Positions 11,463 to 18,625 are shown, counted from the stretch's first letter. The stretch is DNA of 64,000 nt from Candidatus Paceibacter sp. (GCA_020724885.1 DYGD01000002.1:3038-67037), one strand, 5' to 3'. Made by a program: numbers and translations. Notes: generated by a model from the sequence alone, not told the origin.

Positions 11463-11852
11463 TTAATCACCAACACAAAAAACTCAAGATTCCAAGAACA
11501 AAAACAGGCAAAACTTTGATTGCATAAAAGAGAGCAAAACCTTGCGATTTTCAAATTTCCCGATGAGATTGATTTATTAGTACGCCTCGGCTCAACACAT
11601 TACTGTGCTTACACCTGGCGCCTATCAACGTGATCATCTCTCACGAATCTTAATGATTCCTAATCTTGGGGTGGGCTTCCCTCTTAGATGCTTTCAGAGG
11701 TTATCCCTTCCGAACTTAGCTACCCAGCGGTGCTCCTGGCGGAACAGCTGGTAGACCAGAGGTTCGTTCCTCGAGGTCCTCTCGTACTATCGAGAACTCC
11801 CCTCAAGAATCAACGCCTGCAGTAGATAGGAGACCAACCTGTCTCACGCAAA

Positions 11853-12160
11853 AGTAGCTCACTAGGCGCTAGGCTTTGGACCTTAGGATCTAGGAACACC
11901 GCCGTTACCGGCGGGATCGGACGATACACTCGCGGTCAATCCGCGGTTGGTTTGTCGTCTCTACAAGGATTTTACTCCTCTCGGTGTTGTCCTTCTAAGG
12001 ATTCCACCGATAACCCCAACTTGTCACTGAATTAGATTCAGTGCCGCCGTGATTTGATTGGTTTCTATCTCTATTCGTAGACGAAAAGTTCGATTACGTC
12101 GTTATGAGCGGATTCAGACGGTACTTATACCGATACTTGACAAAATCTATTTTTATCAGT
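11853..12160 (-). mobile_element. ORF-less intron-like insertion (~305 nt) in 23S near E. coli site ~2585-2593
   Basis: Exon reads GCTGGGTTCAGACCGT [insert] CGTGAGACAGGTTGG versus contiguous E. coli GCTGGGTTTAGAACGTCGTGAGACAGTTCGG. Confidence 0.6.
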
Positions 12161-12289
12161 ATAACTACGGTCTGAACCCAGCTCGCGTACCTTTTTAATT
12201 GGCGAACAGCCAAACCCTTGGAAGCTTCTCCACCTCCAGGATAAGGTGAGCCGACCACTTTCAATCCCCATGTTGCCATGGGAGCAGAC

Positions 12290-13140
12290 TATACCTTTGC
12301 TTATATCCTAACTATAAGCACCAGCGTGTTATGGCAATGTTTTATCAAATTTAATTGAGGCATTTGCCATCTGTTCACTTAAGAACAAGTCGTTACGGGG
12401 CAATACAACCAATCTTGTATTCCATCGGATGGACGATGTATGGTTTTATAAGATTAATCATTTTGAGAGTTTCGGATTTATTTGCATACATCCGAAATCC
12501 TTTGTCACGATCCTTATGGTGAACCATTTGAATACCAAATTTTTTATAAATAGCATTTTCAAGAATTTTTATTTCCTCTAGCACAAAAGAATAAGTGCTG
12601 ATATCAATAATCCCTTTGTTAAAGGATCCGTCGTCCATAATCCATACTGCCATAGATTGAGGATTGAGATCGACTCCGATATCTTTTGGAATTATTTTCC
12701 TACCAACCCTATATCCATCCCCAACATAAAACCTATTGTAGATTTTTGTTAATAATGGATGTCTCACTGTCCTAAACCACCAAGATTTTCGATATTTACT
12801 TCCATTTTCATCATATCGATAACTTATCTTTGGTTCAGTTAGTACCAGGTCTTTCAATACAGAATACTTATACTCTGTATATTCTTTTTGAGCTAATCCC
12901 TGTTCTATTTTGAAGTTAGCATTTACTGCTCCCTTCCCCATTCTCATTGTTCCATCCCCAAGCAAACAACCCACTAAAAGTGAAAGTTGCTCGTCAGTCA
13001 GAAACATTTTTTCTTTAACGGGAATTAAATCCTTGTGCCAATATTTTGTTGCATAGCTTCCCACGGTGTTGACCATACTATAACGCGAATTATAACATGG
13101 CTTTCTCCGTTATGAGCTGATTTAATGTGCATGAAAAATC
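12290..13140 (-). mobile_element. Intron in 23S (near E. coli ~2500, after GGCACCTCGAT) carrying a LAGLIDADG ORF
   Basis: Exon AACAGGCTGGTTCCGCCTAAGAGTCCATATCGACGGCGGAGTTCGGCACCTCGAT is interrupted and resumes at TCGGCTCACC ~12285. Confidence 0.65.
12393..13076 (-). CDS. LAGLIDADG homing endonuclease (intron-encoded)
   Basis: Motifs LLVGCLLGDGTM and AVWIMDDGSF. Confidence 0.8.
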   Translation of the reverse strand: MVNTVGSYATKYWHKDLIPVKEKMFLTDEQLSLLVGCLLGDGTMRMGKGAVNANFKIEQGLAQKEYTEYKYSVLKDLVLTEPKISYRYDENGSKYRKSWWFRTVRHPLLTKIYNRFYVGDGYRVGRKIIPKDIGVDLNPQSMAVWIMDDGSFNKGIIDISTYSFVLEEIKILENAIYKKFGIQMVHHKDRDKGFRMYANKSETLKMINLIKPYIVHPMEYKIGCIAP

Positions 13141-13289
13141 ATACACACGAGAGAATTGTTCGTATTCTCCCCCTCGACATTCGGTATCTATCGAGGTGCC
13201 GAACTCCGCCGTCGATATGGACTCTTAGGCGGAACCAGCCTGTTCATTGTTTTAGCTGGTGAATAGACTATATCATCACCCCGCCTTGG

Positions 13290-15355: not shown

Positions 15356-15689
15356 CATGTCCTGAAGGAAAGCGCCCCACTTAAACTGCCCACCAGATAA
15401 TGTCCCTTGCCGTTTTTGCCGACGAGGTTAGAACATATCCTTTCACAGAGTGGTATTTCACTGGCGACTCCATGCCGACCGAAACCGGCACTTCAAAGTC
15501 TCCCACCTATGCTACGCAGTAAAAAAATAAGCTCAATATCAAGTTGCAGTAAAGCTCCCGGGGTCTTTTCGTCTAACTGCAGGTAACCGGCATCTTCACC
15601 GGTATTGTATTTTCACCGAGCAAGTCCCCGAGACAGTTGCCCACTCGTTACGCCATTCGTGCACGTCTCTAATTAAGAGACAAGGAATT

Positions 15690-15900
15690 ACGCTCTTCTA
15701 TCCCTTTAACAGAAGGACCATGTCTTCATCTCTGCTTATTAAGCAGAGCGCACGGCGTATGGCCTCTCATATGAGCCGTGATTGGACTATTCTTGTGTCA
15801 CCACAAGAAAGGTAGCTTTCGCATAATTTATTTGTTTATCTCCATAACGATCCCAGTCCTTCTGATTCCCTTAAAAAGAGAATCAGAACCTTAGGATCGT
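15690..15900 (-). mobile_element. ORF-less intron-like insertion (~215 nt) at the classic 23S site 1917 (after CCUAAGGU)
   Basis: Exon GTCGGTCGTAACTATAACGATCCTAAGGT [insert] AGAAGAGCGTAATTCCTTGTC versus contiguous E. coli sequence. Confidence 0.6.
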
Positions 15901-16077
15901 TATAGTTACGACCGACATTCACCAGGGCTTATAACAATCACCAATACATCTTGCGACATATCAACGTCGTTACTTGACCTTCTGGCATTGGTCAGGCGTC
16001 ACCCCCTATACATCCTCTTGCGAGTTCGCAGGGAGCTGTGTTTTTGATAAACAGTCGGCAGGCATACTTTAGCTGCG

Positions 16078-16221
16078 GCCCCCGACACCAACTTTGGCAT
16101 CGTTGCATTGTGTGTTTTCGTAATTTTTGTCGCAATACTTCAGATTTTAAGTAAGAAATTATTACTTACTTTAATCTTTGGAGTTGCAACAAAAACACAA
16201 TGCCAAAGTTGGCGTCGGGGG
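16078..16221 (-). ncRNA. ~145-nt stem-loop insertion / intervening sequence in 23S (variable helix near E. coli ~1720-1750) closed by a 22-bp stem
   Basis: cccccgacaccaactttggcat ... atgccaaagttggcgtcggggg inverted repeat (one G-U); the closing stem and ~40 nt of loop are similar to the element at 18655..18797. Confidence 0.55.
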
Positions 16222-18625
16222 CAGGCCTTATTGCGAACTTACGGCCGCTTTTTTGCCGAGTTCCTTGGGGACCTCTCACTCGTTCGCCTTGGTCTTCTCG
16301 ACCTGACTACCTGTGTCGGTTTTGCGGTACGGTTTGAATCTGCTTAACCTTAGAAGTTTTTCTTGGAAGCGCGCTTTACAAAATTTGATCACCCGAAGGT
16401 TCACATTTTCGTTCTGCTTGGGTTTGTGCCTCCCGGATTTTCCTGGGAAACGCCCTCACAGCGCGAACATAAATCCAATAATATGCTTTGTATACTGCAC
16501 TCCGTCCCTCCATCGAAACAAATTCAAGTCACGGAATATTAACCGTGTGTCCATCACCTTCGGCTTTCGCCATCGGCTTAGGCCCGACTAACCCTTCCCT
16601 GATTATCATCGGGAAGGAAACCTTAGTCTTTCGGCGTCCCGGTTTCTCACCGGGATTGCGGTTACTTGTGCCAACATTCTTACTTCCACACGCTCCAGCA
16701 TGGGTTACCCCTTTGCCTTCAACGCAGAGTGGAATACTCTCCTACCACATGTCAATGCGAAGCACTGACACATCCTCAGTTTCGGTATCATGCTTGAGCC
16801 CCGATTATCTTTGGCGCAAAATCTCTGAATAAGTGAGCTGTTACGCTTTCTTTAAAGGATGGCTGCTTCTAAGCCAACCTCCTTATTGTCAGAGAAATCT
16901 TACAACCTTACGCGCACTTAGCATGAATTTAGGGACCTTAACTAGAGATCTGGGCTGTTTCCCTTTTGACCAATGGAGCTTAGCCCCCACAGTCTAACTG
17001 CCAGATTCTGGCTGCGAGTATTCGGAGTTTGATAGGTTTGACGAGGTTTCCCCCTATTCAAACCTTCCAGTGCTCTACCCCCCGCAGAAACATCTGACGC
17101 TAACCCTAAAGCTATTTCGGAGAGAACCAGCTATTACCAAGTTCGATTAGCTTTTCACTGCTTACCACAAGTCATCCGATGGAGTCGCACGACCAACCGG
17201 TTCGGGCCTCCGCACGCCTTTCGGCGCACTTCACCCTGCTCATGGCAAGATCACTTGGCTTCGGGTCTCATGTATACGACTATTATTTCGCGCTTTTAAC
17301 ACTCGGTTTCCCTGTGGCTCCACCCAGTCAAGGGCTTAGCCAGCCGCATACATAAACTCGTTGGCTCATTCTTCAATAGGCACGCCGTGATGGCTCCCCG
17401 CTTTTGAGTTGTAGAAAACTCTACTTCCCAAAAGTGGGGAGCCACTCCGACTCCTTGTAGGCATATGGTTTCAGGTCTATTTCACCGCCCTCACCGGGCT
17501 GCTTTTCACCTTTCCCTCACGGTACTAGTTCACTATCGGTCTCTAACGATATTTAGCCTTACCGGTTAGTTCCGGCAGATTCACCCGAGCTATTGATGTC
17601 TCGAGTTACTCAAGAATAGCAACCAAGGAGTTTTTCTTGTTTTCGCCTACAGGGCTATCACCTCCTGGGGCTTCTCTTTCCAGAGAATTCGGCTAACAAA
17701 AAAATATTTTTTACTCCTCTGGCTAGGCCGTGTTGCTATCTTACAACCCCCCTCCCCAGTTTTGAATTATGGAAATTTCCATATCTCAAAACTGGGGAGG
17801 GGTTTGGGCTCTTTCCTTTTCGCTCGCCGCTACTAAGAAAATTCCTATTGGTCTCTTTTCCTCCGGGTACTGAAATGTTTTACTTCCCCGGGTTTGCATC
17901 TCGAACTGGTCGAGATTTCCGCCAAAAGCGGAAGGGTTTCCCCATTCGGACATCTCCGGATCAAAGGTTGCTAGGCACCTCCCCGAAGCATATCGCCGCC
18001 AAGCCGCGTCCTTCATCGCTCGTTAGAACCTAGGCATCCACCATACGCCCTTGAATTCCCATCAGGAAATTCAAAAACCGCTGTCAATGCGAAGCATTGA
18101 CCGCGGACACACGCAGACAGGACGCAGAAATACGCAGAAATCTAACTCGAAACCACATGGCTACGAATCAAGATTCTGCGACCTTCTGCGTTCGTTCTGC
18201 GATATTCTGCGGTCAGTGCTTCGCACTGACATTTTTGCTCTCTTTTATACAATCAATCTGCGCAAAGCGCAGATTTGCCTGTCCCGAAACCCTATCTTCC
18301 GAAAGAATTCCGGGATAATCTGTCTACAACAAATAAAGACCCCTCGACTACGCTCGGAGTAAACTCCTTAGTAATCAAAAGTTTTGTTGTGACAGGATTT
18401 TGTCTGCGATATCGGGCTATGCCCAACTCGCGGAACTTTTGTCAAACAACATTCCTTCATCCATTCTGGCTCTATCTTCCGGCCAAATTTCTGTTGTTTA
18501 ACAGAAATTTGGCCGAGAGACAAAAAAACCGCCTTTTAAGCGGATTTGACTATCACATAACGATAAAATCACCGTCTCCGCTTGAGTTTTGATATTAAAA
18601 AATTTATTAACATAACTTTATTCTA

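Follow-up and report, generated by a model that had tools for sequence, protein, structure and literature searches.

On the minus strand of a 64,000-nucleotide (nt) stretch of DNA from Candidatus Paceibacter sp. (GCA_020724885.1, DYGD01000002.1:3038-67037; hereafter the window, whose own numbering is used throughout), we identified a 23S rRNA gene with five inserts, I1 to I5. With a probability that we put at roughly 85%, it is a working gene of a bacterium resembling the candidate phyla radiation (CPR, or Patescibacteria) that has been invaded at five universally conserved positions of domains IV and V by mobile group I introns. Insertion sites are written below as L followed by the E. coli 23S position (e.g., L1931), and compared loci as L followed by three digits.

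Gene structure and splice junctions

The gene was delimited by the Rfam model of bacterial large subunit (LSU) rRNA (RF02541, searched at threshold and in a relaxed mode), by BLAST to E. coli rrlH (L001), which served as the reference for 23S numbering, and by conserved exon motifs that fixed the exact junctions. It occupies 11569..18064 on the minus strand (6,496 nt as DNA), where Rfam reported LSU rRNA in pieces along 18064..11569 and BLAST found eight segments collinear with rrlH. Five breaks fell at contiguous E. coli numbering (1931/1932, 2262/2263, ~2449/2450, 2504/2505 and ~2593/2594). The exons are 18064-15888, 15694-15366, 14375-14186, 13244-13190, 12255-12167 and 11848-11569, and they are separated by I1 (15887..15695, 193 nt, after U1931), I2 (15365..14376, 990 nt, after U2262), I3 (14185..13245, 941 nt, after U2449), I4 (13189..12256, 934 nt, after U2504) and I5 (12166..11849, 318 nt, after U2593), all on the minus strand. 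I2, I3 and I4 contain an open reading frame (ORF), and I1 and I5 have none. All five inserts follow a U and end in a G. Together they amount to 3,376 nt, and their removal leaves a 23S sequence of about 3,120 nt whose exons are collinear with E. coli and conserved through the peptidyl-transferase centre (Rfam, BLAST). Rfam detected no second 23S copy within the window.

These junctions bear out the central claim of a first-pass annotation made from the sequence alone, namely that the gene is broken by five intron-like insertions, three with LAGLIDADG ORFs and two without; the exon matches were likewise not contiguous in the covariance-model search. Four of its insertion sites (~2590, ~2500, ~2449 and ~2250s) were right, but the fifth, 1917, was not, as the exon motif CCUAAGGU|...|AGCG puts I1 at 1931. 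Its coordinates lay within about 5-50 nt of ours. The three ORF-bearing introns had been drawn too short; the ribozyme cores flank the ORFs. For I2, an alternative length of 989 nt with a start one base later was rejected, since helix 81 would gain a base; at 990 nt the spliced product is, by eye, collinear with E. coli. Group II and bulge-helix-bulge introns were rejected as well, given that Rfam, which includes group II models, returned no group II match anywhere in the gene and that no reverse-transcriptase ORF is present. In domain I/II, two more helices (17748-17803 and ~17380-17440) exceed the Rfam LSU consensus by about 30-40 nt and form tight hairpins; at this size, we did not class them as inserts.

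Group I architecture of the inserts

All five inserts are group I or group I-derived. In each of them we found an internal guide sequence (IGS) that pairs with both exons to form P1 and P10 (I1, GCU.ACCU; I2, UUAGG.GGGA; I3, UUUGUU.GUCCUC; I4, CCGA..GUCGAGG; I5, CACG.GCGG), together with P3-P7-P8-P9 and the R and S elements that form P7. I2-I5 also have the U·G wobble at the 5' splice site and, separating the 5' strand of P3 from P7, a P4-P5-P6 domain; I1 has neither.

I2 scored 71.7 bits on the Rfam group I model (RF00028, Intron_gpI; gathering score, 50 bits) over 15367..15018, giving a core at 15365-15018 (minus strand) that the endonuclease ORF then follows. The Rfam alignment contains P3-P7-P8-P9 and P4-P6. 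The I2 guide pairs with exon UCCU|CCUAA, and P1 (UCCU/GGGA) covaries with the exon, as relatives with exon GCCU have guide GGGC. By eye, I2 also has an exon-clamping helix, GGGGCGCUU with AGGCGCCUC, ahead of a 5' hairpin and a distal guide. For I3 and I4, the ORFs were excised and the remainders folded together with homologs using RNAalifold. This recovered P1 (with U·G), P3, P4, P6, P7.1, P7.2 and P8 with many compensatory pairs in I3, and P1 (with U·G), P3, P4, P5, P6, P8 and P9 in I4, where 28 of 51 pairs covary. ORF-less homologs of the two introns matched RF00028 end-to-end with 26.5 bits (L040:5348-5596, for I3) and 36.2 bits (L011:3271-3580, for I4). With two hairpins, P7.1 and P7.2, between P7 and P3', I3 and I4 are IA-like group I introns, and their weak fit to the Rfam model is probably due to these hairpins.

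For I5, helices were mapped on the window copy and then examined in an alignment (A4) with 14 ORF-less L2593 introns. The core comprises, on the minus strand, the IGS CACGGCGG (12051-12044), P2 (12043-12025), P3 (12020-12016/11950-11946), P4 (12010-12005/11986-11981), P6 (11980-11965), P7 (11959-11955/11924-11920), P8 (11945-11931) and P9 (11914-11899), and is thus a complete group I core. These helices were paired in 83% of cells vs 73% in shuffles, 33 of the 53 pairs had changed on both sides, and P4, P7 and P9 were paired in 100%, 97% and 99%, respectively. P7 itself is compensatory, with GACGA/UCGUC in the window and GACUA/UAGUC in relatives, and an ORF-less homolog (L040:5735-5967) reached 59.1 bits on RF00028. 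The core is preceded by an additional 5' segment of about 105 nt, in which the strand 12119-12110 pairs with exon 12179-12170. Like I1, described below, I5 has an exon-clamping helix (exon GGGUUCAGAC with GUCUGAAUCC; pairing in relatives, 92%), after which come a 5' hairpin and a guide placed far into the intron.

Three I-SceI-type endonucleases

The ORFs of I2 (14996..14364, 210 aa, Pfam E = 1.8e-43), I3 (13981..13364, 205 aa, E = 7e-35) and I4 (13076..12393, 227 aa, E = 3e-39), all on the minus strand, encode LAGLIDADG_2 proteins (PF03161; 135, 121 and 149 bits, respectively; cut-off, 25). The proteins resemble I-SceI (PDB 1r7m; phmmer, E = 1.7e-30 for the I2 enzyme). Each has two LAGLIDADG motifs in one chain, with an invariant Asp in LLGDG/VLGDA and two in MDDG. 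These motifs line up with GDA and MDDG of I-SceI, and both catalytic Asp residues are kept. Mutual identity among the three is only 33-35%, similar to the 33-39% between endonucleases of different sites, while orthologs at the same site in other genomes are 43-57% (L2262), 44-57% (L2449) and 49-76% (L2504) identical. As the nearest relatives are thus found at the same site in other genomes, the enzymes represent three site-specific lineages and not recent duplicates.

The ORFs are closely interlocked with the ribozymes. Those of I3 and I4 occupy the P6 loop and stop at a UAA within the R element CCCGUAACGACU, and the first codons of the I4 ORF span P5, P4' and P6, so that its start overlaps the ribozyme. 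The I2 ORF is placed after P9 and crosses the 3' splice site: its final three codons and stop (CCU AAA AAG UAA) lie within the 3' exon, where the conserved exon word AAAGUAACGG supplies the UAA. ORFs cross the L2262 3' splice site in this way in four other loci as well (L005, L007, L008 and L015). The L2262 enzyme is presumably translated from the unspliced precursor, because excised I2 RNA would be without a stop codon.

Related I-SceI-type enzymes were also seen outside the CPR, in Armatimonadota, Acidimicrobiaceae, an Acidobacteriota metagenome-assembled genome (MAG) and Hydrogenobacter sp. (L039, L045, L041, L050, L049 and L078). The 23S genes of these hosts are interrupted at the same or neighbouring sites of domains IV-V, and that of the Acidobacteriota MAG carries six inserts.

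Taken together, we propose that the introns would be removed from the pre-rRNA by guanosine-initiated two-step transesterification, with ligation of the exons, and that the three enzymes would cut intron-less alleles at L2262, L2449 and L2504 and so allow the introns to spread by homing. The ORF-less I1 and I5 are probably what remains after loss of an endonuclease gene.

A reduced group I derivative at L1931

The shortest insert, I1, begins with a hairpin (15887-15860) and an exon-pairing strand (15855-15848). Its guide, complementary to AAGGU|AGC, is located about 95 nt into the intron (IGS GCUACCU, 15816-15810) and is followed by P2 with a GNRA loop (15809-15790), P3 (15780-15775/15756-15751), P7 (15764-15759/15721-15716), P8 (15748-15730) and P9 with the terminal G (15715-15695), all on the minus strand. 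The P4-P6 domain of group I ribozymes is normally considered essential, and it is also what normally reads the U·G wobble.

To place I1 among relatives, metagenome contigs were scanned for its conserved 5' motif, which yielded at least 120 loci. From these and three genome loci, 34 distinct short members (186-255 nt) were aligned (A3), with helices mapped from the window copy. The helices were paired in 88% of cells vs 69% in shuffles and about 40% with partners slid, and 39 of 54 pairs had changed on both sides. Among the supported helices is one between exon positions -12..-5 and an intron strand UGGGAYNN, in which three pairs track exon differences between hosts. P4-P6 is absent in 31 of the 34 members, in which the R element follows the 5' strand of P3 after only 5-10 nt; the other three (L183, L184 and L012) keep 55-70 nt that fold as P4-P5-P6, and L183 scored 68.1 bits on RF00028. 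Likewise, the splice-site pair is U-A in 31 of 34 members, with a G only in L183 and L012. Longer relatives (685-760 nt) have a guide with G, and their P6 loop holds a LAGLIDADG gene whose reading frame continues through the R element.

The simplest history is that a single deletion removed the endonuclease gene together with the whole P4-P5-P6 domain in the I1 lineage, leaving P1/P10, P2, P3, P7, P8, P9 and the helix that clamps the 5' exon. The G-to-A change of the guide may predate this deletion, because L184 has the A with P4-P6 intact. The features that persist across divergent hosts (the guide, J8/7 (GAAGA.A), the R element, the terminal G and the compensated helices, including the exon-intron helix) argue for ongoing selection on this RNA, and splicing is the simplest function for it to act on. 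Two other structural solutions were considered. A P4-P6 hidden in the A-rich 5' segment was rejected, as RNAalifold gave no consensus structure there; the length of this segment ranges between about 12 and 110 nt, and it is nearly gone in the shortest member (L160, 186 nt). A pairing of GGACU with the S element rather than with J2/3 is less likely, judging from the covariation pattern in L012 and L149.

A long-stemmed hairpin at helix 63

In addition to the introns, a 145-nt hairpin without an ORF (16078..16222, minus strand) replaces helix 63 (E. coli ~1705-1765). The first-pass annotation had noticed a stem-loop of this size, and it is real: its 26-nt arms (16078-16103 and 16197-16222) are 92% complementary, and the fold has a minimum free energy of -76.3 kcal/mol (z = -10.2 vs shuffles). 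Two conserved anchors that flank the helix are 197 nt apart in the window, compared with 95 nt in E. coli and 64-80 nt in most CPR relatives. A minority of relatives have 130-520 nt at helix 63, always closed by a long near-perfect stem. Inserts of about 365 nt carry a gene for a small GIY-YIG protein, to which Pfam assigned the L186 peptide (E = 5.7e-17); inserts of ~365-385 nt were noted in L186, L162, L125, L113 and L149, all but L186 being judged by similar length and sequence. Two Saccharibacteria MAGs carry tRNA genes within the insert, namely tRNA-Ile(GAU) in L040:3199-3670 and tRNA-Ile(GAU) plus tRNA-Gln in L019:620-1136. As the tRNAs must be cut out, the insert is removed in these two, and their 23S rRNA is left in two pieces at helix 63.

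These observations suggest a family of mobile, non-intron elements at helix 63. The window's copy caps a surface helix, is optional and has a long double-stranded stem; it is probably an insert of the intervening-sequence (IVS) type and not an intron. By analogy with known IVSs, it is most likely cut by RNase III at the long stem and excised without ligation.

Independent assemblies and optional sites

The arrangement was recovered independently. Contigs of three sequencing runs carry the gene for the L2262 endonuclease, and a 27.7-kb contig (L002) together with a 3.8-kb contig (L003) has the same inserts at the same lengths as the window. Since these contigs were assembled from other runs, the arrangement is not an assembly artefact. 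We then compared the gene with 80 species-representative genomes encoding related endonucleases. Uninterrupted junctions were found at the I1 to I5 sites in 7, 7, 18, 18 and 11 loci, respectively, which shows that the insertion positions are fixed and the inserts themselves optional. In this sample, which is biased, related genes have 2-6 inserts in domains IV-V; two genes have six, and four, the window's included, have at least five. Domains I-III of the window's 23S are at most 83.5% identical to any locus compared, the nearest being metagenome contigs and MAGs, and the best endonuclease relatives come from Parcubacteria-type MAGs.

Alternative explanations

Several points weigh against the reading of the gene as a functional one with five mobile group I introns. 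Within the window, only I2 reaches the gathering score of RF00028; the copies of I3, I4 and I5 gave no match at E <= 1, and I1 gave only 17.7 bits. I1 has no P4-P6, with 10 nt (UCAUAUGAGA) separating P3 from the R element, and its splice-site U faces A and not G; the loss of both P4-P6 and the U·G pair would cripple a textbook group I ribozyme. Intron excision in this organism and cleavage by the three endonucleases are, moreover, both predictions from sequence. The most radical alternative, an assembly chimera or a decaying rRNA pseudogene whose insertions have no biological role, could draw on the metagenomic source and the unusual length of the gene. We consider it highly improbable, given the identical five-intron arrangement from three runs, the collinear exons conserved through the peptidyl-transferase centre, the leader/trailer stem and adjoining 5S gene (see below), and the absence of a second 23S copy from the window.

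For I1 and the helix-63 hairpin, the rival readings carry more weight. I1 could be a dead relic that no longer splices and is either kept in mature 23S rRNA as an expansion or removed by nucleases, leaving fragmented rRNA. The P3-to-R spacing of just 5-10 nt in 31 of 34 members, the A opposite the splice-site U and the low RF00028 score all fit such a relic, and the Simkania L1931 intron reportedly remains unspliced in 23S rRNA. However, more than 30 divergent copies hold P2, P3, P8 and P9 by compensatory changes, the IGS, J8/7, R element and terminal G are invariant, and the intron strand covaries with exon positions -12..-9 between hosts, which points to continued selection on the exon-intron interaction. 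Furthermore, fungal group I remnants of 63-75 nt with P1, P7 and P10 only splice in vitro (PMC3160393). We thus regard a dead I1 as unlikely; the insert probably still splices, perhaps with the assistance of proteins. More tentatively, and at somewhat less than even odds, we propose that the L1931 insert belongs to a lineage of group I ribozymes, widespread in bacteria and minimised in nature, that would splice without P4-P6 and the U·G pair, using the covarying exon-clamping helix and the 5' hairpin instead. Literature searches turned up P4-P6-less group I introns only as engineered constructs or in fungi, and none native to bacteria.

The helix-63 hairpin could similarly be an expansion segment retained in the mature 23S rRNA, at the same position as the eukaryotic ES27. 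Retention would require only a simple lengthening of a surface helix known for variable length; helix 63 is not among the classical IVS sites, and we found no paper tying it to IVSs. This option is a serious one but appears the less probable of the two, as the 26-bp near-perfect basal stem suits an RNase III substrate, the insert is absent from most relatives, and the longer inserts of other relatives are closed by the same type of stem. Excision is needed where tRNA genes are present, as in L040 and L019, and further relatives hold a GIY-YIG ORF. The IVS-type interpretation therefore remains our preferred one.

Genomic surroundings

The 5S rRNA gene (11474..11369, minus strand; RF00001, 77.7 bits) follows the 23S gene after 94 nt. 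The rRNA genes do not form a linked unit, and their order on the minus strand is unusual: 23S, 5S, about 9.5 kb with several protein-coding ORFs (including a VWA-domain protein, FtsW, SecD and SecF) and 16S. The 16S gene starts at 1897 on the minus strand and matches E. coli 7-788 down to 1165, and its remainder runs off the window. It contains a group I intron (1174..23; RF00028, 51.1 bits) with a LAGLIDADG_3 ORF (777..55). No tRNA gene was detected in the 64-kb window with ARAGORN.

About 560 nt before the start of the 23S gene is a sigma-70-type promoter that nearly matches the consensus (TTGACT-16-TATAAT, 11 of 12 positions; 18626-18653). By eye, the leader and trailer form a stem of about 21 bp (18066-18086/11546-11566) that resembles RNase III processing stems, and the leader segment 18200-18110 has three CGCAGAA repeats opposite three TTCTGCG repeats. 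A 19-nt hairpin, GTCARTGCTTCGCAYTGAC, occurs three times (16751-16769, 18083-18101 and 18212-18230; expected, 0.01). The first of these forms the end of helix 45 in the 23S rRNA, and the other two are in the 23S leader, of which one is directly upstream of the mature 23S 5' end and is followed by a T-run.

Comparison with known systems and implications

The first-pass annotation held that intron-rich rRNA genes are typical of CPR bacteria and that this one is at the high end. The former agrees with a published survey in which 82% of 348 CPR 23S genes had inserts (Tsurumaki et al. 2024, PMC11270868). As for the latter, the gene does lie in the upper range but is not extreme: published genes reach 16 inserts and a total of 5,750 bp (mean 1,327, SD 1,112), so that, with about 3.5 kb of inserts, it stands about 2 standard deviations (SD) above the mean and is no record (PMC11270868). 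The window gene also shares with the survey the concentration of group I introns in the 3' part of 23S, LAGLIDADG_2 proteins of about 210 aa, short ORF-less inserts and, in its relatives, GIY-YIG genes in non-intron inserts (PMC11270868). According to that survey, CPR rRNA insertions are removed from transcripts (citing Brown et al. 2015), and one CPR LAGLIDADG enzyme, I-ShaI, which is not a window enzyme, cleaves its insertion site. CPR 23S genes with several introns have thus been described before. What we add is the structure of a short ORF-less insert, a class that the survey leaves unclassified and that is resolved here, for the 193-nt I1, as a group I derivative without P4-P6. A second addition may be the helix-63 element, together with the relatives in which it bears tRNA genes.

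Bacterial 23S introns at L1917, L1931, L1951 and L2593 (Synechococcus, Thermotoga, Simkania and Coxiella; Haugen et al. 2007, PMC1995217) share the L1931 and L2593 sites with the window, as well as ORFs that extend from a peripheral loop into core helices and the P7.1/P7.2 extensions. They differ in having single-motif LAGLIDADG_1 genes and at most three introns per gene, whereas the window's L1931 and L2593 introns are ORF-less and its two-motif I-SceI-type ORFs are at L2262, L2449 and L2504. The fungal nuclear rDNA degenerate introns (Phialophora, 63-75 nt, PMC3160393; lichen mycobionts, PMC8527467) are likewise natural derivatives without core helices. They are smaller, are still removed from rRNA and in some cases splice. 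In contrast to them, the CPR mini-intron comes from bacteria, measures 186-255 nt, lacks P4-P6 only, keeping P2, P3, P7, P8 and P9, and has an additional exon-clamping helix. The helix-63 hairpin resembles the RNase III-excised 23S IVSs (e.g., Coxiella helix 45, PMC4990558) as an optional long-stemmed surface-helix insert, sometimes with an ORF, but differs in its site, helix 63 rather than helix 9, 25 or 45, in the cargo of its relatives, GIY-YIG or tRNA genes rather than S23p, and in that its cleavage is predicted.

With I-SceI of the yeast mitochondrial omega intron, the window enzymes have the protein family and both LAGLIDADG Asp residues in common, and they differ in their bacterial host and in being three paralogs for three sites of one gene. 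The omega intron sits at L2449, the same rRNA position as that of I3.

A single gene thus juxtaposes three paralogous I-SceI-type enzymes at three sites, two apparent post-endonuclease remnants and a non-intron helix-63 element. The exact junctions allow the true ~3.1-kb 23S rRNA to be rebuilt for annotation, where standard rRNA callers fragment the gene. If the proposal for L1931 is correct, this family would be the natural counterpart of the engineered 'P3-P9 only' ribozymes. Were the mini-intron to splice, it would reveal the extent of reduction that a group I ribozyme tolerates in nature, as well as the substitutes for the P4-P6 scaffold and the wobble receptor.

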